11,311 nt of DNA, from the NCBI GenBank assembly GCA_043732185.1, contig JAYTHY010000076.1, forward strand, positions 1 through 11,311, read 5' to 3'. Shown here in pieces: positions 100 to 11,311 of the stretch (the stretch's first letter is position 1; each line of letters opens with the position of its first letter). The notes below the pieces were generated by a model. It made no database searches, was not told the origin of the DNA, and was given only the letters and a program-made list of their open reading frames with translations. The translations under genes and the position numbers were made by a program. Source of the DNA: Fibrobacteria bacterium (GTDB lineage Bacteria; Fibrobacterota; Fibrobacteria; UBA11236).

Positions 100-2106
100 T
101 TACCGGGTAAGATTGAGAATCCTTGTGCACCGTTTACCCTCAGCATTTAATTCAAATAAATAGGGGCCGGGTAAAAGTTTGTCCAAGGAGTAAAAACCTT
201 CCTGGCCCGAAATCATCACCTTGCCTGTGACACTTGTCCGGCCCGAAAGTGTGTAGATCTTTGCGGAAACACTCCTGCCCTGCGAAGCATAAGGGAGCGA
301 GAAGAAAAGACCATCGCGAACTATGCGAAGAGAGAAATCAAAGGGTCCGGGAACACTATTGGTGCTGATGGTCACGACGTTTTGAGGAGAAGTGAGTATC
401 GCTCCACCTTCTCCCACCGTCATAAACTGGCCGCTTCTGAACATAATGAAATTGAGATTGTAACCTGTGCCTGAAGAATTCCCTACCCATGTGACACCAT
501 CGAGGGAAGACTGAATTACGCCAGCATCTCCCACGAGAGCACCGCTGCGGCTGTTTCCCGCAGCAACCAACTGGTTACCACTCCAGGCTATGGAGTTCAA
601 GGTGTTGATTTTCGAAGATCGGCTGGTCCAGGTGATGCCGTCGGGCGAAGTCAATATCACGTCTCCCACGGCCACAAGCTGGCTTCCGGTCCAGATGACA
701 GAATAAAGCGAATAAACTGTACCCGATATTTGGCTGGTCCAGTTCACACCGTCCGGCGAAGTGGCAGTGTACCCGTAATTGCCGACCGCCACGAACTGAC
801 TGCCGGTCCAAGCCACGGAATTACCCACTGCCGAAGACCTGCCCGTCCATGTGATTCCATCCGGAGAAGTTAGGCCCCCGGCATTTCCCACGGCCATAAA
901 TTGATTGCCGGTCCAAATTACGGAGAAAAGGGCAGTTGTTGGCGTCGTCGTCCGGTTGGTCCATGTGATGCCATCGGCTGAAGTAAGAACGGTGTTGTTC
1001 GCCCCCACCATTACAATTAGGGAGCCGTTAGACGTGACCGAGTAAAGAGGATTGGTGGTGCCCGAAGTTCGAGTGGTCCAGACAATACCGTCGGGGGAGG
1101 TCATTGTTCTGCCCGAATCGCCCACGGCCACAAACACGCTGCCAGTTCGTGTTACTCCGTGAAGCTGGGTTGTAAATCCAGAACTGCGCAAAGTCCAAGC
1201 GACTCCGTCTGGCGAAGTTGCAATAACGCAATAGCTGGAAACGGAAAAATCCGACCCCGCGCCCACGGCCACAAGCTGGCTACCGGTCCACGCTAGGCCG
1301 CTGAGTCGCATCGTGGTACCCGATGCCCTGGCAGTCCACGTCATCCCGTCCGGAGAAGTCAAAACTGTTCCCTGGGACCCCGTCGCGACCAGTTGACTTC
1401 CGGTCCAACGCACAGAGTAAAAAGTGGAAGAAGCTGCTCCCGAATTTTGGGCGGTCCAAGTGATGCCGTCTGGAGAGGTTAAGATAGTCCCGAGGGACCC
1501 CACCATCACATATTGACTACCGGTAAAGGTCGAGGAATAAAGCGGGTAGGTGGTTCCCGAAGTCCTCGGGCTCCAGGTAATGCCGTCCATTGAAGTTAAA
1601 ATGATACCTGCACTTCCTGCGGCTATAATTTGATTATTGGAAAAACTCACTGAGTAAAGGGCGGAGGTGATACCTGAGTTTTGGCTGGTCCAAACAATCC
1701 CGTCCGGAGAGGTCAGTATGCGGCCGGAATCGCCGACGGTCACGAATCGGGTGCCGGTCCAGATGACGGAATAGAGGATGCTTGTCAGGCCCGAAGCTCT
1801 GCTTGTCCAGGTTATTCCGTCTGGTGAAGTAAGAAGGGTACCGTTTCTCCCTACCGCCGCAAATTGGCTACCGGTCCAGACCACCGAGATAAGCCTGGAG
1901 GCGGTTCCCGAAGTTCTTTTCCTCCAGAGAATACCGTCGGGTGAAGTCAATACAGTGCCGGCATCGCCCACGGCCATGAGTTGACTGCCGTCCCAAATGA
2001 CGGAAGAAAGCCGGTTGCCATGTGGCATAGGATTGCGCCAAGTCCAATCGGTTTGAGCGAAGGGGTTTACGAAGGCAGCGAAAAATACAATAAAAAGAAG
2101 TGGCAT
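100..2106 (-). CDS. Secreted Asp-box/BNR-repeat beta-propeller protein (probably two 7-bladed propellers) with T9SS type-A-like C-terminal sorting domain
   Basis: Fourteen ~39-aa repeats of consensus LYSVxWTGSQFVAVGxxGTILTSPDGITWTxRxSG. N-terminal signal peptide MPLLFIVFFAAFVNPFA-Q. C-terminal tail AKIYTLSGR...LLPGPYLFELNAEGKRCTRILNLTR resembles Por/T9SS CTDs. ATG at 2106 is preceded by GGAAGGAAC and is preferred over the GTG at 2118. Confidence 0.9.
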   Translation of the reverse strand: MPLLFIVFFAAFVNPFAQTDWTWRNPMPHGNRLSSVIWDGSQLMAVGDAGTVLTSPDGILWRKRTSGTASRLISVVWTGSQFAAVGRNGTLLTSPDGITWTSRASGLTSILYSVIWTGTRFVTVGDSGRILTSPDGIVWTSQNSGITSALYSVSFSNNQIIAAGSAGIILTSMDGITWSPRTSGTTYPLYSSTFTGSQYVMVGSLGTILTSPDGITWTAQNSGAASSTFYSVRWTGSQLVATGSQGTVLTSPDGMTWTARASGTTMRLSGLAWTGSQLVAVGAGSDFSVSSYCVIATSPDGVAWTLRSSGFTTQLHGVTRTGSVFVAVGDSGRTMTSPDGIVWTTRTSGTTNPLYSVTSNGSLIVMVGANNTVLTSADGITWTNRTTTPTTALFSVIWTGNQFMAVGNAGGLTSPDGITWTGRSSAVGNSVAWTGSQFVAVGNYGYTATSPDGVNWTSQISGTVYSLYSVIWTGSQLVAVGDVILTSPDGITWTSRSSKINTLNSIAWSGNQLVAAGNSRSGALVGDAGVIQSSLDGVTWVGNSSGTGYNLNFIMFRSGQFMTVGEGGAILTSPQNVVTISTNSVPGPFDFSLRIVRDGLFFSLPYASQGRSVSAKIYTLSGRTSVTGKVMISGQEGFYSLDKLLPGPYLFELNAEGKRCTRILNLTR

Positions 2107-2121
2107 GTTCCTTCCCACTTT

Positions 2122-2649
2122 CTACTTCGAACTACGTTTCGAAACCGGAGTGATACATTTCTGGTAGGTTTTCCAATCCCTTCCTCTCGGGTAGACCCCA
2201 ACAACTTCGTCTAAGTAGAGGGTTGTTTCTGAATCAGGAAAACATATTTGATTGCCGATAAGCGAAATGGCCTTCCAAGGCGCGTACTTAATTCCTTGAG
2301 GCAATTTGGTAAAATGGTTTGTATTGATGTCAAGAACGTTAATAATTCTAAAACCACGGATAGAAGATGGAAAAACAAAATTAGAGTCATTAAGGCCCAA
2401 ACCATCAAGATCAAGATTACCAGAGAGATAGCTTGCATCTTTCTGGTCACGTACCGCAAAAGCATGGCCGGCATTTTTGGCAGAATCAAGCACGGGGTTT
2501 GCGTTTATAATTGCGTCGACGATCCTTAAATCAGATTCAACATTTTTTTGATACGAATCGTCAAAGAAACTAAACCCGCAGCCGCAGAGCAGCATTGAGG
2601 CGAAAACCACAGCGTTTTTAAGGACTTGCGCCTTCACAATCGAATCCAT
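2122..2649 (-). CDS. Leucine-rich-repeat lipoprotein
   Basis: Hydrophobic stretch and lipobox-like MLLCG|C. About three LRR-like units (LDLDGLGLND..FPSSI; LDINTNHFTKLPQGI; ISLIGNQIC) followed by a C...W..YQKC cap. ATG at 2649 has GGAGG upstream. Overlaps the end of the upstream gene by 32 nt. Confidence 0.75.
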   Translation of the reverse strand: MDSIVKAQVLKNAVVFASMLLCGCGFSFFDDSYQKNVESDLRIVDAIINANPVLDSAKNAGHAFAVRDQKDASYLSGNLDLDGLGLNDSNFVFPSSIRGFRIINVLDINTNHFTKLPQGIKYAPWKAISLIGNQICFPDSETTLYLDEVVGVYPRGRDWKTYQKCITPVSKRSSK

Positions 2650-5131
2650 TCGCCCTCCGATAATATTCCCGGCCAAGGACATTCAAATCGAAACAGAAGG
2701 AAGCCCAACCATTGAAGTCAATTTTGGCTTGCGCTTTGAACGCATCAAAGGTCGGGTCCTCAATAAACCTCGTATAAGCCGGCTGGATACCCAATGGGGC
2801 GAATTTCGGGTCCACCAGTAGTGGCTTGTACCATAGCAACAGCACGTTGAAATTCGTATTGGTGCCTAGGTTTTGAGGCGGACTCCCGGCGCCGTCGAGA
2901 ATGTCTATCATGCGGGTCAATGGGATGACGTCTCCGCCGATGGGATCCATCCGTAGTTCCCAATTGATATTTCCTGCCTCGGTGATGGCGACGGGTGCGA
3001 AACGGCCACGATTGGCGTATAAATCGGTGGAAAGCCAAGCTGAAGTGTTTGAAATGCGAGTTATAATATCGTTACGTGTGTACCGCCCTTCGACATCGAA
3101 AGGATAATAGTGGACGGAAATGGCGTCGGGCAGGAGGGGTGTAAATACTCCGTTGCCATTTATGTCCACAGTCCTGTCTAAGTTGCTCAATACCAAGGAA
3201 AAATATTGCCGCGTTGTGTAATTCAGTAGGGTTCCTTGGACCAAATTTTTGGCGTCATCAAGGGAAGAAGTCACGGCATTACTCGTATATAGGGCCAACC
3301 ATGGAGCAAGGACGATAATGGGAGGGAAAAATATGGATCCAAGATATGCCCCGATAAGAAATGTTGCAGCACCAACTCCTACGCCTGCATCTAATATCTT
3401 CTCATCTAAAAGTTCTCCAAAATGGGCTACGGCATCCTGCTTGATGAAGTCTCTGTCGAACAGTGCCCCTATGACGATCTCGGCGTTCGGATCAGCCCTT
3501 TTGATGACCTTGTAATATTCCCTGAACAAGACTGCGTAGTCCTGCGGAGAAATATAGGGGAACATGTTGGGCTCATTCCCAATTTCCCAAACGGTCCGAC
3601 GGGGACGCATGGCCATATTGTCCCGGAGTACGGCAGCTTGGATTTGCTTGGCGTCAGCTGCCGCTAGAGCGGCCGCCTTAGGCTGGAACCAGCGGAACCT
3701 CGGTCTATCGGCGACGCACAAGGAGGGAATACGGCTTTGGCAGATGCGTACTTGCCACCTACGGATGCAAGGAAAGGACACGGAAGTCCAGCAACCTTCG
3801 AATGGAAACAAATACCATCCTATCCTAGCCTTGATAAAACTATCGAGGTCGGACTTAAAGTTTCCTACGCTGTATCCAAAACCATCATGACGGTGATCGA
3901 ATGTGCCCACTTTTCGAACCACAGACACACCGGACACAGGATCGGCAGAAGCTGCTAAAGACGTAACGGTATAAGGCGGATTGGGTGGGGGCGGATCAGT
4001 GTGGTTACCATATATTTCATACCACTTCAGCTGCATTATCTGAACGAATTGGGTGGCACCCTCTCCAATTACGCCATACTCCAATGTGCCGCCTAGTGGA
4101 GGGATTTGAGAAATCAATGAGGACTGTGAAATTGATTTTTTATTCGTAAGAAATGGTCTCGGCAAAGTGCTCCAAGTAGGAGAAATCTGATCGGCGGTTA
4201 TTGTTTTCAGTAAGGAATCAAAATATGCCGCCGAATCCTTGATCACCGGCAGAACCGGAGGCTGTGCCACGACCGCCGTGACAGGAGCCGCAGGCATGTA
4301 CACCCCGCTTCCTCGACCGACGATTACCTTTTTCCCGAACAACCGACCATCTAATTCCACACTATCGCCCAAGATTATGTCGGCTTTTGGGGCCACGAAA
4401 ATTGCGCTAACCCCGGCAAAGGACCCGATGCAAAGTTGGTGATTCTGTTTGCTGTAAATGGTGAGCATCATGTTGCTGTCCCCAGCAATGGGCGTGATTT
4501 CGGCTTCGCGGCCAATGCTGACGTTTTTCTCCACATTTATCTGAATGGGGCCATCCGAAAGGTCTAAAGCTACCGAAGCCAAGCCATCCAACCAAAAGCC
4601 CTGGAAGTTATAAGTTCCGGACCGGAGGGTAAGTATAGACCGAGGTAGAACCCGGAGATACCTGTAAGTGCCAGGTCCTAGGATTTTCGGATGCTTATGG
4701 ACGAACACATCGTGTGTGCCCACGGGGATATCCAAAACCTGTGGTATCGGGCATTCTTCCCAACCAGGCATGTGCTCGATGACATCCGAAGCCACTTTTG
4801 AACCGTGCCCCCGGAATACTTGACCACCCACGGTGACAAGTCCATTCACGAGTGAATTTTTATGGAGCCAAGCATTGGAATCTGCTGTTACGGTGCCCCA
4901 CACCTGCGCCCTTTCTTCGACGACCACATGTTTCGCCGAACCTACGTTGCCACCAACAGCTACAGAGCTTTTCCTAAGTATTGTGGCTTCACGAGAGTAG
5001 ATGATGTATTGGTCGGAGCAATAGGGAAAATTCTGGGGCAATTCACCCTTGGCTTGAAGCCACAATCCAAAAACTATGGCAAGGAAATTCAGGGCAGAGC
5101 GGGAAGAAACCAAGAACATCACCAACCCCAT
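2618..5131 (-). CDS. Secreted multidomain protein: N-terminal beta-solenoid-like region plus C-terminal clan GH-A (GH39/GH5-like) glycoside hydrolase-like domain
   Basis: 837-aa ORF with signal peptide (..ALNFLAIVFGLWLQAKG). N-terminal V/G-rich beta-strand repeats ending in FVAPKADIILG...LDGRLFGKKVIV. Pro-rich linker. Clan GH-A motifs WEIGNEPN (3566-3589), IKRADPNAEIVIGAL, PDAISVHYYP and VAITEAG (ITEAG at 2972-2986). Confidence 0.8.
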   Translation of the reverse strand: MGLVMFLVSSRSALNFLAIVFGLWLQAKGELPQNFPYCSDQYIIYSREATILRKSSVAVGGNVGSAKHVVVEERAQVWGTVTADSNAWLHKNSLVNGLVTVGGQVFRGHGSKVASDVIEHMPGWEECPIPQVLDIPVGTHDVFVHKHPKILGPGTYRYLRVLPRSILTLRSGTYNFQGFWLDGLASVALDLSDGPIQINVEKNVSIGREAEITPIAGDSNMMLTIYSKQNHQLCIGSFAGVSAIFVAPKADIILGDSVELDGRLFGKKVIVGRGSGVYMPAAPVTAVVAQPPVLPVIKDSAAYFDSLLKTITADQISPTWSTLPRPFLTNKKSISQSSLISQIPPLGGTLEYGVIGEGATQFVQIMQLKWYEIYGNHTDPPPPNPPYTVTSLAASADPVSGVSVVRKVGTFDHRHDGFGYSVGNFKSDLDSFIKARIGWYLFPFEGCWTSVSFPCIRRWQVRICQSRIPSLCVADRPRFRWFQPKAAALAAADAKQIQAAVLRDNMAMRPRRTVWEIGNEPNMFPYISPQDYAVLFREYYKVIKRADPNAEIVIGALFDRDFIKQDAVAHFGELLDEKILDAGVGVGAATFLIGAYLGSIFFPPIIVLAPWLALYTSNAVTSSLDDAKNLVQGTLLNYTTRQYFSLVLSNLDRTVDINGNGVFTPLLPDAISVHYYPFDVEGRYTRNDIITRISNTSAWLSTDLYANRGRFAPVAITEAGNINWELRMDPIGGDVIPLTRMIDILDGAGSPPQNLGTNTNFNVLLLWYKPLLVDPKFAPLGIQPAYTRFIEDPTFDAFKAQAKIDFNGWASFCFDLNVLGREYYRRANGFDCEGASP

Positions 5132-5290
5132 TGTTAACTATCACATAATATAGGTGGAATTTCGAGATTCAGCTGCAACAATGGGACACTAAATTTTCGC
5201 AATTTCAAGCCACGATGTCCTATTATCCCTTATTACGCGCATATTTTACGCGTTCTTCCCTGTGCGCCACTTGACTCTAGAACCGGTGTG

Positions 5291-5425
5291 CGGAACAACT
5301 CGGCAAGAATTGCGAAACAGCCGACTTAAGGGATACGAATCGGCTCAAGTTCAGCTTCCACCATTCAACGGCCACCGATACCATCCTGGTCATCACCGAT
5401 AACCGCATTGGGCTTTCGTTGCGGC
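5291..5425 (-). repeat. Possible degenerate shorter attC-like element D
   Basis: Minus strand GCCGCAAC ... GTTGTTCCG. Arms pair only weakly (AATTGCG/CGCATT). Internal AGCCGA/TCGGCT hairpin. Lacks the motif shared by A, B and C. Confidence 0.3.
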
Positions 5426-5625
5426 TAGTGATCCTCAAAACAAGAACCCTTGGCAGCAGGGCGGGGGTTGGGTTCAATTTCTTGGAAAGACGGTAATGGC
5501 ATTTCAAACAAGAACTCATCAACTTGGCATCCTGAGAGAATTAATTTTTCTTTTGCGCGCGTCTTATCCTCACGTAATTCGCGCCGCACACGACGTGCGG
5601 CGATTCGTATTTCCGCACCCCCATT

Positions 5626-5880
5626 GAACACAACGTGTGCCAGGGCGACGTGGATTTTTGGATTAGGGCCGAAACACGAGGACGAGAGCGAAGTGGTGGC
5701 CTGTGGCCGCCCGAAGCGAACGCCCGCAGTGTGCTGTGAAGGCCCGTTGAGAGCGAGTGGCGTTTCGCCGCGAAGCCTCTCAATGGAGCCTGAACAGCCG
5801 GACCAATCCAAAAATCCATGTGGGCGAAGCCCCGGAGCGGGGGTGGAACCCACGCGGAGCGCCCTAGCTGTGTTGTCCGA
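5626..5880 (-). repeat. Long attC-like hairpin element C (255 nt)
   Basis: Minus strand starts TCGGACAAC and ends GTTGTGTTC. Outer arms AGGGCG/CGCCCT and perfect 14-bp arms TGGATTTTTGGATT (5651-5664)/AATCCAAAAATCCA (5805-5818). Shares the internal GAGGAY..GCGRAGTGG..CCCGRAGCG..CCCGCA motif with A and B. Confidence 0.75.
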
Positions 5881-6238
5881 TGTTGCGCCTCTTAATTTCT
5901 TTATGGGGTGGGTCTTCTCTTGGTATTGGTTGGTTGGATTTTTTCTGGGGTAGGGGCCCCAGTCCTAACTTCATAACTTCTTTCATTCTTTCCGGCATGG
6001 CGAAGTGCTTTCATTTTGCCATGCACCGATTGTGCGTGTATTGTCTGGCTTTTTCCTTGTTTTACCTGACTTCCCCATTTTGGATTTATTGGTTTTCTGA
6101 ATTTTTATTTGACTTAAATTCTTAGTTTGGATTGCTTTGGTTTTCTTCTCTTCCCACCCCATAAAAAATTATGAACTGGTAAATTGCCTTCCGGCCCATA
6201 GCCGGGGGGCAAGTATTTAGAGGTGCAATTTCGGACAA
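5634..6238 (-). mobile_element. Putative ORF-less integron-like cassette 2 (605 bp including element C)
   Basis: Begins after G^TTGTCCGA (6239/6238). Its terminal hairpin starts with the exact complement TCGGACAAC (5880-5872). No credible CDS inside. Confidence 0.6.
5946..6024. repeat. Structured ~80-nt motif, copy 1
   Basis: TGGGGTAGGGGCCCCA ... CTTTCATT ... GCATGGCGAAGTG-cttt-CATTTTGCCATGC; 13-bp stem with two G:T pairs on the + strand. Confidence 0.8.
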
Positions 6239-6523
6239 CGTTAGCCACGCCGGAAGTGGCCTGGGAAGGCCGAAGGGAAGAAGCAACGAAATAATTTGCG
6301 CGCTGGGCGAGGATGTGAGCGGAGTGGGGAGTGCCGACCCCGGAGCGAACACCCGCAGCCCGCAATGAAGAAAAGCTGCGGCGCTAACGAAGCCGAACGG
6401 GAAAGACCTCAGAGAAAGTTAGCGCCGCGGCTTATTCTGAATTGCCGCGCAGCCTTCCCAGGCCATTTGCGAAACCGCAATGCGGAGCATGCCCGCGGTT
6501 TCCCGGCTGGCGGTGTTGCATGC
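6231..6523 (-). repeat. Long attC-like hairpin element B (293 nt)
   Basis: Minus strand starts GCATGCAAC and ends GTTGTCCGA. Perfect 14-bp arms 6257-6270/6452-6465, extended by AAG/TTT. Inner 16-bp stem 6373-6388/6418-6433. G:T pairs form on the + strand. Confidence 0.8.
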
Positions 6524-6645
6524 GCCGCAGGCCGGCCAGCGTGTATCGCGCAGGCCGAGTTGTCCCACACACAGGGAGATGATATCGGCTCTTTCTTTCC
6601 GCCCACCCTCTTTTCTTAGCGCACTGGTTTTTCTTTATCACCTTA

Positions 6646-6727
6646 TGGGGAAGGGGCCCCATTCTTCACGTAATTGGAGTAATTACTTTCATTAGGCAAG
6701 GCGAAGTGCCTCAGCATTTTGCCATGC
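6646..6727. repeat. Structured ~80-nt motif, copy 2
   Basis: TGGGGAAGGGGCCCCA ... CTTTCATT ... GCAAGGCGAAGTG-cctcag-CATTTTGCCATGC; same three blocks, order and orientation as copy 1. Confidence 0.8.
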
Positions 6728-6743
6728 GACGTTTGCACTTGCC

Positions 6744-7343
6744 TTATTTTTCCCATGGTCTCTTGCCTTGGCAGTGAAAGTAGTAGAATCCTTGAGACGT
6801 TTCTTTGGCCTCAGGACATAAGTCGAAGGAGATTTTCCTTCGTTTTTTTGGATTTTCCGGAAAGAATATAAGTTCCTTTTCCCATGCATCGTATTTGGCC
6901 AAGTAACTAGTCTTCCATGCCTTTAATTCGCTCTTTTGTAATTCCCGCCTGGGACGCGCGTATTCTTCTTTAGAAAATAGAGCAATTACCAGCGTAGCCC
7001 TCGGAAATTTGTTCATCATACATTCCCATGAAATATTGCGTAACATGGTCTTAAGGCTATCCTCGTTTTCTATTATCAAGGAGTCGTACGCCGAGACAAA
7101 AAGCGTGGCCTTCAACTGTTTTTTATCCTCGTCAAGGCTGATTCCGCTGTAAGGTGGTGGTGGAGATGAATATTTCCTGCGAGCACCCAATCTTTCTGCG
7201 GAGTGAATTTGGCTAATACAGAACGCCAAGCTCACTAGAAGGCAGCTACCCCAGGCGAGTTTCGACGCTGGCCGGAAGGCGTGCGCGAATAGCACGCGGA
7301 ACGCGACGCTTATTTTCTTCCTTTTTTGGAGCCCTTCGAACAC
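6744..7343 (-). CDS. Hypothetical protein, probably exported; start codon uncertain
   Basis: 199-aa ORF with hydrophobic segment LAWGSCLLVSLAFCISQIHSA. As called, it overlaps the end of the 888-aa gene by 34 nt on the same strand. No family recognised. Confidence 0.6.
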   Translation of the reverse strand: MFEGLQKRKKISVAFRVLFAHAFRPASKLAWGSCLLVSLAFCISQIHSAERLGARRKYSSPPPPYSGISLDEDKKQLKATLFVSAYDSLIIENEDSLKTMLRNISWECMMNKFPRATLVIALFSKEEYARPRRELQKSELKAWKTSYLAKYDAWEKELIFFPENPKKRRKISFDLCPEAKETSQGFYYFHCQGKRPWEK

Positions 7344-9976
7344 GGTTCTTTCCCTTCCACGAGGACGGAAACGGCTTCCGACTGAAGATTGTCCACCCGG
7401 ATGCGATAATAGTATACAGCACCAACGTCTACGTTTTCATCCACAAATTTCCTTTCCGGGGTTCTCCCGATTTCCACAAATCCCTGCGTGGAATCCAGGG
7501 TTGACCGCATAACCCGATAATCTCCAGAACCCGTATGACGCCATTTGAGGTGAACTTCAGGTTCTTTGTCCTTAGATTTTTTCTCCTTGGCCTCCAAATG
7601 CATGACCACGGTTTGGATAAGGCTGATGGTGATTTGCAGTGGTTTAGGGGTTTCCACGTTTCCGGCAACGTCAGTTCCGAAAAACTCAATCTGGTAAACC
7701 CCAGCGGCTGATAGCGTGAGAGGACTGGAGGCCGCAACGCCATTGACCAAAAGGGAAAAGGCAGCGACACCCGAAAGCGCATCGACGCTCTGGAAATTGA
7801 TGGTCACGGAGCCATTTTCCGTGCCTGTGCCCGTGTAATCGTGAGAGGAAACAGGCGGAGTGAAATCATTGTGGATGAGGAGGGTATGGACCGGTTCCAC
7901 ATTGCCCGCCTTGTCCGTTGACCAAAATTCCACGGTGTGTTCGCCTTCTTCAGTCAGCGTGATCGCAGTGGTATCCTTGGCGTCACCACCATCCACTTTT
8001 ACGAATGTCTGGGCAACCCCAGAACCGGTGTCGGTAGCGGAAAAGTGGATGACCAACGGATTGATTCGATTCCAGGGTGCTTCCACGAAATCCGAGACCG
8101 TAACAGGTGGGATAACATCGTTCTCGTTGTTTTTATAGTTGACCGCTACCGGGTCGATTTGGCCTTCCACGGTATTCCCATGGATCAACTGGGTAGTTTC
8201 GGTTCCAAAGGCGTCGATCTTGATGATTTCCAGAGTATAGGGGCCGGATCCCGTTCCCACAATTTGGATTTGGAATTCTCCCTGCACCGGCTGGTTGATG
8301 TGGATGTATTTCACGGGGTCAGGATCCGGAGGTACGGGAAAGTCTGGAAGAGTGGTGAAAGAGGCTTCGCCCAAGGTGGCCGTTACATCGGGTATTTCAT
8401 CATAGGATATGCCATCGGCGGGATTCAGTCCCCTCCTTCTTCCCAGTGGGTCCACGATAAAGGCCTGTGCCGGAGAAAAAATCTGGAGGACAAGGCCGTT
8501 GGTTTTAGACTTGTCAGTTGGCGCCATGAACATGGCGTAAGAGAATTTGTTGTCCCAATCGATTTGTTTATTGATATCACCAATTTCACCATTCACCATA
8601 GCAAAATTATTTGCATATCCGACGTCGTTGATAAAGTAGGTTTTGACCCATTTGTTCTCGCGCTTCTTGAAATAGGTTTCGATTCCATTGGCCACCACAA
8701 AGTGGGTATGGTCAAACACCTTCAAAAGCACCGGGATTTTCCGAGCGAGATAATCTTCAATCAGGCTGGCATCGATCTGTGAAGCCTTGAATTCCAACTT
8801 GGTATTGCCGGAAAGACCATTGGTTCCTTTCAGCAGTTCAGGAAGATTGTAGGAAGGGAAGCAGACTTGGGTTCCGGGATCATCGGAACAGGTCCTGAAC
8901 AGATTCTTCTTTTTCACGTACCGGGCCAAAGTCAGGGGCGTGAGGTTTACCAATGCCGTTGAATTTTCCGCCTCTACTTTTGTGGCGCCCTGGGCATGCA
9001 TGATTGATGCCCAAGAAGTCATCCAACAGCCTTTTTGGATAAAGGCATAGCCCGCGACATCGTCCGGATTGATAACGTCATCAAACCAAGGAGCAAAGGT
9101 AGGGCCGGCGGCCTGGCTATACCATGGCCCATTTAAATCAAAGGGTTTTTCCGGGGTGTACGAACCAAAATTGAAATCGGTGGTGATGGCAATCCCGTGC
9201 AGGCGAATGCCGCCATTGACCGTGGCAGTGGTTCCCCCAGCCAAGGGCACAATCGTCTTGAGTCGTGGTACGCTGACCCGGACCTTGTTTACGCGCAGCT
9301 TCAATTCATCGGCGGTGAACCGGATAAATTGCAGATCCATAAACGGCTGCGTGCCGCCACGCAGGGAAAAGGCGCTGACCGGAGGATCGATCAAAGCCCG
9401 CACCGGCACGCTCCCCAACGTGCTGAACCGGAACGAGCGAACATAGTCGAGGATCGAAATCTTGCGGGTCACCTGAACCGGAGCGCCGGAACCAAGGGGA
9501 TCAGAAAGGGTAACATCAATGATAATGGAATCCTTGCCCGACGCGAACTTGGTGGAGTCGTAAAGGTTAAACGCTTCCATAAGAAAAACGATATCGGTCA
9601 TGTGCACGGCAGGGAAGCTCGATGGGAATTGAAACTCAGCGAATGCCAGCGTATCATCCGAGTTGGTCCGCAGGTTGAGGGCGTTCGAGGTGTGGGACTT
9701 CACACGAACAACTTGGATTGAAAGGCTATCTCCCCCGGACCCGCCTTGATGAAGGGTGTCTCCTTCCAGAATCAAAGCCGCGTTGAATTCACTTGGGTAC
9801 TGCGATGAAAAGTCCACGAATGCGGAGCCCCGGGAAGCAGATAATTGCGTGGCGAAGTCGTAGCTTGCGTTTAGGTCCTCATGAAAATTCGGATTGTGCG
9901 GTGTTTCCGGCACTTGGCCAATGGCCAAAGCAAGGGGTAAAAGAAGGCCAAAGCAGAAGACGGGCGGGAATTTCAT
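7310..9976 (-). CDS. Secreted C39-like (papain-fold) cysteine peptidase domain protein with two OmpL47-type Ig-like repeats and a C-terminal fibronectin type III domain
   Basis: Signal peptide MKFPPVFCFGLLLPLALA; GGAG upstream of ATG. Triad-like motifs IQKGCWMTS (9014-9040), HFVVANG (8684-8704) and INDVG (8618-8632). Two DxxPPV...SxTD..SGV...GxHTVEFWSTDxAGNVE-type repeats. FnIII-like VHLKW...YRVMRS...FVDENV..GAVYYYRI. Confidence 0.85.
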   Translation of the reverse strand: MKFPPVFCFGLLLPLALAIGQVPETPHNPNFHEDLNASYDFATQLSASRGSAFVDFSSQYPSEFNAALILEGDTLHQGGSGGDSLSIQVVRVKSHTSNALNLRTNSDDTLAFAEFQFPSSFPAVHMTDIVFLMEAFNLYDSTKFASGKDSIIIDVTLSDPLGSGAPVQVTRKISILDYVRSFRFSTLGSVPVRALIDPPVSAFSLRGGTQPFMDLQFIRFTADELKLRVNKVRVSVPRLKTIVPLAGGTTATVNGGIRLHGIAITTDFNFGSYTPEKPFDLNGPWYSQAAGPTFAPWFDDVINPDDVAGYAFIQKGCWMTSWASIMHAQGATKVEAENSTALVNLTPLTLARYVKKKNLFRTCSDDPGTQVCFPSYNLPELLKGTNGLSGNTKLEFKASQIDASLIEDYLARKIPVLLKVFDHTHFVVANGIETYFKKRENKWVKTYFINDVGYANNFAMVNGEIGDINKQIDWDNKFSYAMFMAPTDKSKTNGLVLQIFSPAQAFIVDPLGRRRGLNPADGISYDEIPDVTATLGEASFTTLPDFPVPPDPDPVKYIHINQPVQGEFQIQIVGTGSGPYTLEIIKIDAFGTETTQLIHGNTVEGQIDPVAVNYKNNENDVIPPVTVSDFVEAPWNRINPLVIHFSATDTGSGVAQTFVKVDGGDAKDTTAITLTEEGEHTVEFWSTDKAGNVEPVHTLLIHNDFTPPVSSHDYTGTGTENGSVTINFQSVDALSGVAAFSLLVNGVAASSPLTLSAAGVYQIEFFGTDVAGNVETPKPLQITISLIQTVVMHLEAKEKKSKDKEPEVHLKWRHTGSGDYRVMRSTLDSTQGFVEIGRTPERKFVDENVDVGAVYYYRIRVDNLQSEAVSVLVEGKEPCSKGSKKGRK

Positions 9977-9991
9977 TTTTCTACTCCGGAT

Positions 9992-10789
9992 TTATGGGTT
10001 TCCAAGGATCTTCAAGGGGGTTTTCTTTGAAATGTATCCACGAATGGGATATTTGCGGCCCCCCTGGGAGGCGAACTGCCCTTTGACTTCACCCCCTCGT
10101 GACGGCGTCAGGATCGCCTCCCATGCCCCTGCGCGGAGCAGAGTGGACGGCAAAATCACTACCAATTCGGAACCCTCGACTGATATATAGTCTGAGCAGC
10201 CTTGCACGGCGGGATGCTTACCCCTCTTGGCTGAAAAAGAGCAAATATCCTTCCCTTGGGATCTTATCCTCCCCTTGAAGGATTGGTCGGAGTCCAACGT
10301 AATCCCCACCTCCAGAGGCTTTCGGAGGGAAATGCCCCACCAGAAATCCGCTCGATACTCGTTTTGTTTCAACGGAGAGGGATAAGGAGGTTCCTTGCCG
10401 ACCTGCACGATGCTGTCGCCATTGAGATCCACAGCAAAAAGCAAGGGATTGTTCTCACGGGTGGAAACGTAAATTTCGTGATCGGGTACGAAGTACTCAA
10501 GCGAATCTTTGACCTCGAATGACGACCTGAGAGTTCGTAAATCCGGGGCATAGGCAGCGTGCTCGTTGAAGTAGAGATCTTCCAGCGTCAGAATGGCGCT
10601 GAATGTCTCATTCAGTTTTGGAGGAAGATATATTTTGGTCGATTCGGAAAAGGCAAGATTCAAAGCCAGAAAAATAAGTAAGGCACTTTTTTGAATTGAG
10701 TCGCGCAATTTGTTTGCTCTTGTTGCGAGTTGAGGCCTAAATTTACGAAGAAATCTGCAAAAAAGCATTGTAAAAATGGTCCTTTCCAC
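9992..10789 (-). CDS. Hypothetical exported protein; start codon uncertain
   Basis: 265-aa ORF with signal-like ALLIFLALNLAFS-E. Stop lies 15 nt before the start of the peptidase gene, consistent with an operon. Confidence 0.65.
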   Translation of the reverse strand: MERTIFTMLFCRFLRKFRPQLATRANKLRDSIQKSALLIFLALNLAFSESTKIYLPPKLNETFSAILTLEDLYFNEHAAYAPDLRTLRSSFEVKDSLEYFVPDHEIYVSTRENNPLLFAVDLNGDSIVQVGKEPPYPSPLKQNEYRADFWWGISLRKPLEVGITLDSDQSFKGRIRSQGKDICSFSAKRGKHPAVQGCSDYISVEGSELVVILPSTLLRAGAWEAILTPSRGGEVKGQFASQGGRKYPIRGYISKKTPLKILGNP

Positions 10790-10932
10790 GCTGAAGGACC
10801 ATAAGAAAATAATTGGCTTGAACCCGAATTCCTCAAAAATTCATCAAGTCGACCTCGGCGTCTTACAAGCTACCGCGACGGGCAGAAAAGCAAACCCCGA
10901 GCCCGTCAGTAAGTTGCCGAGGCAATGGGACC

Positions 10933-10958
10933 GAACGTATTTCGAGAACGTATTTCGA
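10933..10958. repeat. Perfect 13-bp tandem duplication, possible operator
   Basis: GAACGTATTTCGA x2, about 145 nt upstream of the first gene of block 1. Confidence 0.6.
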
Positions 10959-11036
10959 TATTGGTTTTTCCTGATGGAAATTTGAAAAACCTGTTATTGA
11001 AATCCTATCCCTTCACGGCGTAAGCCGCCTTTGCAA

Positions 11037-11070
11037 GGCGCCGCAACTGCGGCGCCAATTTTTCTCTTTT
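11037..11070 (+). terminator. Intrinsic terminator-like hairpin, antisense to the genes
   Basis: GGCGCCGCA-ac-TGCGGCGCC perfect inverted repeat followed by AATTTTTCTCTTTT on the + strand. Confidence 0.4.
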
Positions 11071-11184
11071 CCGTTCTTGATTTTCTTCTCTTTCCAGTGC
11101 GCCTCTTCTTCTTCTTCCATTTTCTTTTCTTCTCTTGGGGGGCAGTTTTTGTAATTCTCTTTCTTCTCTTGTGTGGGGGCAATT

Positions 11185-11311
11185 GCATGCAACGTTGGCC
11201 CAGCCAGAAGTGGCCTGGGAAGGCATGCGCGATTAGTGAGGATGCGCGCGGAGTGGGGAGTACCGACCCCGGAGCGCGCACCCGCAACTAGCAATGAAAA
11301 CAAGCTGAGGT
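11185..11311 (-). repeat. Long attC-like hairpin element A (3' part only; continues beyond the window)
   Basis: Colinear homolog of 6236-6378. Shared + strand blocks CAACGTTRGCC, GAAGTGGCCTGGGAAGGC, GCGGAGTGGGGAGTRCCGACCCCGGAGCG, CACCCGCA and GCAATGAA..AAGCTG. Ends on the minus strand in GTTGCATGC. Confidence 0.8.

Follow-up and report, generated by a model that had tools for sequence, protein, structure and literature searches.

The attC sites of integrons carry two boxes on their bottom strand, R′ (5′-RYYYAAC-3′) and R″ (5′-GTTRRRY-3′), which are paired at the base of a hairpin (Nivina et al. 2016, PMC5027507). As far as the available text of the sources goes, such a site is typically a single hairpin of 57-141 bp, and cassettes are single genes of up to ~2 kb (PMC5027507, PMC4889954). 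The locus described here belongs to a Fibrobacteria bacterium (GenBank assembly GCA_043732185.1, a genome of 4.46 Mb in 139 contigs) and comprises the complete contig JAYTHY010000076.1 (C76), an 11,311-nt stretch of DNA referred to below as the window. The window contains two copies of a motif composed of two hairpins, hairpin 1 (hp1) and hairpin 2 (hp2), and a short box. The surroundings of the motif are an integron cassette array, taken here to be that of a chromosomal integron. The motif itself is interpreted, with a probability of about 0.55, as an attC-derived single-stranded DNA (ssDNA) hairpin module, which sits at the base of a giant attC site, inside the cassette, and does not serve as the crossover site.

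Similar to the class 1 attC and the Vibrio VCR, as described in the available text of PMC5027507, the motif lies at the 3′ end of co-oriented cassettes, hp2 is an imperfect hairpin on the bottom strand accompanied by AAC/GTT boxes, and an integrase is encoded in the genome. In addition, simple sites of ~58 nt in a related genome, G016, fall inside the published range of 57-141 bp. The window differs in that hp2 seems to lack clear extrahelical bases, in that the breakpoints and the joint listed below fall at the AAC/GTT of giant elements and not at hp2, and in that hp2 stands in tandem with a giant branched site, whose complementary arms reach 25-100 nt past the AAC/GTT boxes. Paired R′ and R″ boxes are present in the simple sites of G016 and in the giant elements, whereas hp2 of the window retains the R″ side only.

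A precedent for branched sites such as the giant cores is the DUF1874 motif, a multistem element of consecutive intergenic regions, which was proposed to be an unusual ssDNA attC (Weinberg et al. 2017, PMC5737381). According to the available text of that report, no integrase was seen beside the DUF1874 runs, while here an integrase is present in the genome and breakpoints were found. Because no Rfam family matched anywhere in the window, the DUF1874 motif represents a different sequence family. Gene-less cassettes, i.e., cassettes without an open reading frame (ORF), can have promoter activity and are described as common in arrays in the available text of two reports (PMC6557892; 10.1101/2023.11.21.568050). 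The mini-cassette M1 of the window resembles them, as it is mobile and has no convincing gene, the motif being its only conserved content. However, M1 gave no promoter evidence (one sigma-70-like match against 1.4 expected) and what it conserves is a pair of hairpins on the bottom strand. Intrinsic terminators and REP-type 3′ hairpins are likewise stable hairpins found soon after stop codons, but the hairpins of the window are followed by no U run, their wobbles favour the strand antisense to the genes and neither is terminator-like. In the open-access literature, to the extent of its available text, nothing was found on integrons of Fibrobacteria, on giant attC sites or on remnants of attC standing in tandem.

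Structure and folding strand of the motif

Both copies (Table 1) lie where an earlier note, made from the letters of the window alone, had placed them, and they share hp1 and the hp2 stem. Their similarity is above chance, with 70.4% identity over 98 nt (blastn against the whole genome, E 1.3e-5) and nhmmer E-values of 2.9e-6 and 1.5e-5. Allowing at most one mismatch, a 16-nt word of hp1 occurs twice in the 4.46-Mb genome, both times in the window, and its reversed control 0 times. A third full copy is located on contig C10 (79% identity to copy 2 over 96 nt), and contig C113 contains two copies with hp2 only. Copy 2, as had been noted, starts 16 nt after the stop codon of the 199-aa gene. The proposal that the two copies belong to unrelated cassettes was right in that the homology to the C10 copy ends shortly beyond hp2. 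The first cassette, however, is a 605-nt unit without a convincing gene. The distances of 65 and 122 nt reported from the copies to the terminal hairpin depend on definition and become 67 and 80 nt when the AAC/GTT boxes at 5872-5878 and 6559-6565 are used.

The hp2 stem was sought elsewhere with a sequence pattern. When one genome per species was scanned, 9 loci were obtained, of which 7 were kept, all from Fibrobacteria-type assemblies, and a looser pattern applied to metagenomes gave 26 loci, of which 16 were kept (one of them a duplicate). Two loci of the genome scan, L019 and L018 (the latter a terminator following a tRNA), were rejected as chance palindromes missing the conserved flanks, and the ten rejected from the metagenome scan (L027, L029, L033, L035, L038, L039, L040, L043, L044 and L045) were plain palindromes, also without these flanks. 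Repeats were recognized as such (L031 duplicates L023; L021 and L075 repeat copy 2 of the window). With the genome's own copies, the pattern-found set amounts to 26 distinct hp2, from which the covariance model R1 was built. Copy 2 of the window scores 58.6 bits with this model.

Covariation was assessed on 49 matches of R1, 43 of them distinct, against 500 shuffles and slid controls. Across the 43 distinct copies, 97.3% of the 598 cells of hp2 are paired, compared with 24-55% in the slid controls. Double-sided changes occur at 9 of the 14 pairs, and 0 of 500 shuffles reach any of the measures. The basal half of the stem is free to vary (GCATGG/CCATGC, GCAGGG/CCCTGC, GCATAG/CTATGC, GCAGCGCG/CGCGCTGC and GCATGCC/GGCATGC), while the apical duplex CGAAGTG/CATTTYG is invariant and its G·U (columns 29/41) is kept in 42 of the 43 copies. 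Whereas an attC is characterized by an unpaired central spacer of 5-6 nt on either arm and by extrahelical bases near L″, the hp2 stem is free of bulges in most copies, with a bulged T in L057, L058 and L059. In the window, both G·T pairs of hp2 are kept, as the earlier note had claimed.

The wobbles also tell the folding strand. Read on the + strand, i.e., the bottom strand, antisense to the genes, the hp2 stems of the 26 pattern-found copies contain 40 G·T against 3 A·C, and 15 against 3 when only pattern-free positions are counted. R1 matches score 31-78 bits in the + orientation against 23-31 bits in reverse. In the window, both hairpins fold on the + strand, whereas the folds of the minus strand are no better than those of shuffled sequences (z −1.8 and −0.1). 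The folding strand proposed in the earlier note is thus supported by the wobble counts. Strict copies of hp1 (L017, L074 and C10) show the same preference, as their wobbles are G·T on the + strand.

hp1 is less regular. A strict expression finds it at 19 of the 43 hp2 sites, in 7 sequence forms, the closing pairs of which covary (AT..AT, GC..GC, GT..AC, CT..AG and CC..GG). At two further sites, L057 and L072, a different GC hairpin occupies its position. Among the differences listed between metagenome variants of M1 (5857-6190), none falls in hp1 or in the hp2 stems and one falls in the hp2 loop, which is weak evidence with only ~2.5 expected in the stems.

Relation of hp2 to simple attC sites and to cassette junctions

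The comparison that bears on the origin of hp2 comes from G016, a relative with a well-assembled array containing two intergenic sites of ~58 nt. These simple sites consist of the standard left arm ending in ..GCAAC or ..ATAAC, then GTTCGC, giving the same AAC/GTTCGC start as in the giant cores (the slash marks the junction), followed by a stem of 16 bp, with the hp2 duplex GAAGTG/CATTTT as its apical half, and by GCAT joined to GTTG. They fold into an R-box duplex and the stem, with a one-sided bulge of 2 nt in between, and R1 aligns them end to end with 35.6 and 28.7 bits. Giant cores show the same signature, with GAAGTGG located 12-14 nt after AAC/GTT and paired with CCATTTG (inverted repeat I3), and the C113-type giant core resembles the G016 sites at both edges, starting with GTT.GCCAT...GA.GTG and ending with ...ATGGCGCAT joined to GTTG. 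Owing to these shared edges and the shared duplex, the simple site can be considered the family's basic attC, the giant cores an expanded version of its terminal structure and hp2 a copy of the basic stem. From these sequence comparisons, hp2 is very probably derived from an attC. The suggestion that the motif belongs to no known family consequently fails for hp2, since the simple attC sites of this very integron family have a homologous stem.

Next to hp2, 3-5 nt downstream on the + strand, lies a (G/T)TTGTGY box, both in the window and in most composite sites. Across the 26 copies, the TT of this R″-like box is invariant and the preceding C nearly so. One locus, L041, has hp2 between ..ATAAC and GTTGTCC boxes, with an arm like that of window positions 5872-5896.

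Among 151 sampled genomes of the class Fibrobacteria, R1 matches 14, including 11 of 31 in the family of the window's genome and 8 of 14 in its genus, with 1-9 copies each. In the genome of the window, an integron integrase is encoded on contig C132 without stops (TIGR02249, 375.5 bits against a cut-off of 265). Integrases were found in 34 of the 151 class genomes, namely in 10 of the 14 hp2-positive and 24 of the 137 hp2-negative ones, counts which are descriptive only since these genomes are kin and not independent. The hp2-positive genomes without an integrase match are G061 (86% complete), G016 (in which the array is cut by the end of a contig) and two genomes of another family with weak hp2 matches.

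The position of the motif is conserved as well. Along the gene strand, the order is the last stop codon, 16-100 nt, the R″-like box, hp2, 8-76 nt, hp1 (optional), an arm of 40-100 nt, the giant core and G/TT. In most of the 26 copies, hp2 follows the end of the nearest long frame by 16-100 nt. All five hp2 sites of the window's genome have a giant hairpin core upstream, and elsewhere a giant core is found 99-211 nt beyond hp2 at 26 of the 32 sites whose flank extends over 400 nt or more, the exceptions being L013, L036, L041, L050, L056 and L058. The motif is hence linked to the large hairpins, as expected of the cis-acting element of a cassette system that had been proposed. Since this linkage and covariation were both found, neither of the two findings named in advance as fatal to the proposal, a lack of one or of the other, was obtained.

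The giant elements themselves are GC-rich blocks folding as long branched hairpins (z −6.4 for e1 and −3.6 for e2), with branched cores of 237-319 nt between AAC and GTT boxes in the window; for the giant sites in general, 250-330 nt are given. Both ranges are far above the 57-141 bp of published attC sites. The core of e1 is homologous to cores at other loci, and relatives of e2 are found on C10 (2), C35 (3), C100 and C113 and at the end of C76. Hairpins with these AAC/GTT boundaries recur on five short contigs, in many cases at the contig ends, as is to be expected when a repeat-rich array is assembled. On the + strand, every copy has a left edge ..AAC/GTT.GCC and a right edge at which the core is joined to GTTG... 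The arms at the left junction reassort, an e1-type core standing behind a C113-type arm in the window and behind a standard arm at the end of C35. A further giant element was looked for at 5300-5628, but this segment is unstructured (z −0.3). In M1, the first 25-41 nt are complementary to the arm in front of its own core, and in the three-gene cassette downstream of e2, the arms are partly complementary (6559-6626 to 11097-11193). More generally, the start of each cassette was seen to be complementary over 25-100 nt to the arm preceding its own giant core, so that in a circular cassette the crossover point would sit deep within a long duplex and not at the base of a hairpin.

Evidence on the junctions came from contigs of four DNA runs from two studies, placed on positions 4900-7500 of the window. 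Among the ends listed, metagenome contigs leave the window at 5632-5636, 5642 and 6240-6247. One contig (X5 record 18) corresponds to 5632-6240 with foreign sequence on both sides, and in another (X6 record 27), 6212-6234 is joined directly to 5630-5814, which is how the two ends of M1 (5635-6239) would meet in an excised circle or between tandem copies. M1 is intact in all four runs, in differing contexts. From these ends and the joint it follows that cassettes break at AAC/GTT by the giant cores and that M1 moves whole, with copy 1 of the motif inside.

Other arrangements were observed at a few sites. Runs X1 and X2 contain a joint from 6734 to 6459, and at 800-870 of L036 hp2 is directly followed by the 3′ part of an e2-type core. 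Both could be hybrid sites or result from a deletion removing the genes between two sites. At 1340-1360 of L013, no core is present, and the sequence before the right arm is the upstream region of a gene, and at ~330-345 of L041 the AAC and the GTTATGC arm are only 8 nt apart, as if the core had been deleted.

Alternative explanations

According to the proposed mechanism, hp2 and the adjacent GTTGTG-type box represent the stem and the R″ half of a simple ~58-nt attC, the paired R′ (..AAC) having been lost in the window, and hp1 is a GC hairpin between hp2 and the long arm leading into the giant branched attC. Once single-stranded, both hairpins would fold on the bottom (+) strand, like attC sites, at the base of the giant hairpin. 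Recombination would take place at the AAC/GTT junction of the giant site and, because it would not take place at hp2, the motif would travel within the cassette. Whether hp2 still acts there is a near-even question leaning slightly towards no: the integrase may continue to bind it, using it as an auxiliary site or a decoy, or it may provide a second R″ box for pairing; otherwise, it would be a conserved remnant. More speculatively, and with little expectation that all its parts hold, the array could be a two-tier site system, in which a giant, branched attC with complementary arms of 25-100 nt moves multi-gene cassettes of 4-6 kb and a cleavage-dead tandem hp2 (..TAC in place of ..AAC at R′), with hp1 as a GC clamp, forms on the bottom strand an integrase-loading, decoy or folding-control module that sets the frequency of excision or primes second-strand synthesis of excised single-stranded circles.

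Several observations weigh against a conserved module of attC origin at the base of the giant site. The R′ side of hp2 reads ..TAC in 15 of the 26 copies, or nothing, instead of ..AAC, and the fold of the window copies consists of the 13-bp stem without an R-box duplex. Without an AAC R′ box and an R duplex, hp2 is an incomplete attC by the published definition, as given in the available text of PMC5027507. At L041, an ORF (572-943) reads through the hp2 site, for which reason this locus is given less weight. The module is dispensable, since two giant elements of C35 have neither hp1 nor hp2, and hp1 is missing from one composite site of G016 and from the C113-type copies. A·C pairs on the + strand do occur, in one diverged hp1 (L065) and in 3 cells of hp2, and the + strand preference of the giant core is weak (alifold, −139.9 against −133.8 kcal/mol). 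Among the contig ends and joints listed for the four runs, none falls at hp2. Finally, the covariation may stem from an era when each hp2 was an active simple attC, and therefore does not prove a present function.

Two of the alternatives accept the attC origin of hp2 and differ on its present state. Were hp2 a second attC that is still active, the stretch from its R′ side to the giant core (hp1, arm and core) would constitute a gene-less cassette of its own, which had entered behind a simple attC and could be excised alone. The G016 array, in which simple attC sites with the same stem bound single-gene cassettes, makes this conceivable, as do the GTT-starting boxes found 12-17 nt after hp2 (on the gene strand) in copy 1 and in the C10 copy, and the abundance of gene-less cassettes in the array literature cited above. 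However, most copies have GTA rather than GTT at this place, or no box, and the window copies lack an R-box duplex. The complementarity of the arms moreover spans hp2, connecting the arm that precedes the giant core with the beginning of the gene cassette, and M1 is whole in four runs and differing contexts with no break listed at hp2. An active second site is therefore unlikely. Conversely, hp2 and hp1 could have no present role, a decaying simple attC and a passenger hairpin being copied with the giant attC by descent and homologous exchange. The module is indeed optional, as the C35 elements without it and the missing hp1 of the C113-type copies and of one G016 composite illustrate, the R′ box has decayed, the spacing between hp1 and hp2 ranges from 8 to 76 nt and the compensatory changes could date from the earlier active life of the site. 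A neutral remnant would nevertheless not be expected to show drifting loops and spacers beside stems that are intact (97.3% paired) and compensated in different genera, nor an apical duplex and G·T invariant in 42 of 43 copies. The substitute GC hairpin at the hp1 position of L057 and L072 suggests that structure itself is kept, and the listed differences among M1 variants, albeit weakly, spare hp1 and the hp2 stems. This explanation is accordingly held to be improbable, to about the same degree as an active second site.

The other alternatives place the function in RNA. G·U wobbles favour the + strand equally for RNA and DNA, so the motif could encode a small antisense RNA or act as a terminator or hairpin block on transcription that runs antisense into the cassette genes. 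The 20 sequencing runs listed for the locus comprised no RNA run. Some hp2 loops are of the GAAA type, T-rich sequence follows hp1 (including a run of 8 T in L059) and other GC hairpins with T runs occur on the + strand in the leaders of cassettes (5582-5602 and 11040-11059). Against this, covariance-model searches of Rfam over the whole window, on both strands, gave 0 matches at E up to 1, the T runs after hp1 are not conserved, neither hairpin is terminator-like and the single promoter-like site is within the expectation from shuffles. The terminator scan of 5100-6900 gave 4 sites against 2.9 expected, none of which is the hp1 or hp2 stem; one, at 6020-6038, overlaps the last 5 nt of the 3′ arm of hp2 and the R″-like box. 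Moreover, the same stem forms the body of DNA recombination sites in G016. A function as RNA of the + strand is thus quite unlikely, and neither the small structured RNA considered in the earlier note nor a ribozyme found backing in the Rfam, promoter or terminator searches. A signal on the gene strand, acting as terminator or exonuclease-protecting hairpin at the 3′ end of the cassette mRNA, would agree with the position of hp2 16-100 nt past the last stop codon in most copies and with multi-gene cassettes that, given leaders of ~400 nt, probably have their own promoters and hence would need their own 3′ ends. On that strand, however, A·C mismatches take the place of the conserved wobbles (40 against 3), the folds are no better than those of shuffled sequences (z −1.8 and −0.1) and neither hairpin is followed by a U run, which makes such a signal highly implausible. 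Two further readings were dropped. A coding function does not fit a motif whose copy 2 is intergenic and whose copy 1 overlaps only a 59-aa lysine-rich frame. An inverse geometry, in which arm, cassette content and arm would form the hairpin and the GC-rich core would be the cassette, places GTT 5′ and AAC 3′. It was rejected because this polarity is opposite to that of attC and because the simple sites of G016 enclose the stem between AAC and GTT.

Returning to the attC-derived module, what is new here extends beyond the motif, the giant sites, the long arms and the multi-gene cassettes being the more surprising part. One integron family mixes ordinary sites of ~58 nt with giant, branched and long-armed ones, three-gene cassettes of ~4.6 kb and a second attC-like hairpin in tandem. 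Such three-gene cassettes, of ~4.6 kb or more, compare with ~2 kb quoted for the largest known in the available text of PMC5027507 and PMC4889954. The tandem “dead” site provides a natural experiment in which the requirements of the integrase for binding can be told apart from those for cleavage, and the gene-less M1 a compact substrate for experiments on both. IntegronFinder operates with a size limit on attC sites; if standard attC detectors have such limits, arrays of this kind would be missed and integrons undercounted in environmental phyla.

Features and genes of the window

The features discussed above are collected in Table 1. The strand given for the hairpins and giant elements is the folding strand and that of the cassettes is the gene strand.

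Table 1. Coordinates of the motif copies, giant attC-like elements and cassettes in the 11,311-nt window.
Feature	Position	Strand	Details
Motif copy 1	5945-6036	+	hp1, ~32-nt spacer, hp2, box
hp1, copy 1	5945-5962	+	GC hairpin, 6-7 bp stem including GGGG/CCCC
hp2, copy 1	5995-6024	+	13-bp hairpin, arms 5995-6007/6012-6024, two G·T pairs, 4-nt loop; R1 covariance model 64.9 bits
R″-like box, copy 1	6029-6035	+	ATTGTGC; family consensus (G/T)TTGTGY
Motif copy 2	6645-6737	+	Layout as in copy 1
hp1, copy 2	6645-6662	+	
hp2, copy 2	6696-6727	+	13-bp hairpin, arms 6696-6708/6715-6727, one A·A mismatch, two G·T pairs, 6-nt loop
R″-like box, copy 2	6731-6737	+	GTTTGCA; from alignment of the copies
Giant attC-like element e1	5628-5878	+	R′ box ends AAC 5632-5634; core 5635-5871; R″ GTTGTCC 5872-5878
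Giant attC-like element e2	6233-6565	+	R′ GGACAAC 6233-6239; core 6240-6558; R″ GTTGTCC 6559-6565
Third giant attC-like element, cut by contig end	11186-11311	+	AAC/GTT junction 11193/11194
Mini-cassette M1, 605 nt, no convincing gene	5635-6239	-	e1 core, arm, hp1, hp2, 116-nt T-rich stretch, second arm
M1 arm	5872-5912	+	Complementary to 6153-6239; inverted repeats I1 (25 nt, 84%) and I6 (16 nt, 94%)
M1 partner arm	6153-6239	+	Cassette start on gene strand; I1, I6
Three-gene cassette (265, 888 and 199 aa) with motif copy 2 at its 3′ end	6566-11193	-	Junctions 6565/6566 and 11193/11194

The long ORFs of the window are all on the minus strand (100-2118, 2122-2682, 2618-5131, 6744-7343, 7310-9976 and 9992-10789). 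Between them, 5132-6743 contains no convincing gene, judging from the ORF list and from a Pfam search in which the small ORFs of 59-167 aa overlapping the region matched no family; the only frame of M1 is the lysine-rich one (5983-6162, minus strand). A scan of the window for tRNA and tmRNA genes found none. Two cassettes contain three large co-oriented genes each, encoding 265, 888 and 199 aa (6566-11193) and 837, 186 and 672 aa (100-5634), and Pfam matches in their proteins were limited to weak ones to Big_13, DUF7305 and DUF6242.

The integrase match on C132 (locus L012, 1-1830) lies within an open frame of 494 aa, which at its N terminus extends ~165 aa beyond the 315-position family model. 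As C132 begins only ~400 nt upstream, the attI side is absent from the assembly.

Two further features were observed. A 22-nt segment (5283-5304) shows 86% complementarity to 6554-6575, which comprises the last part of the e2 core and its R″ box. The segment represents an isolated inverted copy of the junction between core end and arm and is located within an 81-aa frame upstream of the 837-aa gene. The strong GC hairpins already mentioned at 5582-5602 and 11040-11059 are each followed by T-rich sequence on the + strand, and that at 5582-5602 was called terminator-like for the antisense direction.

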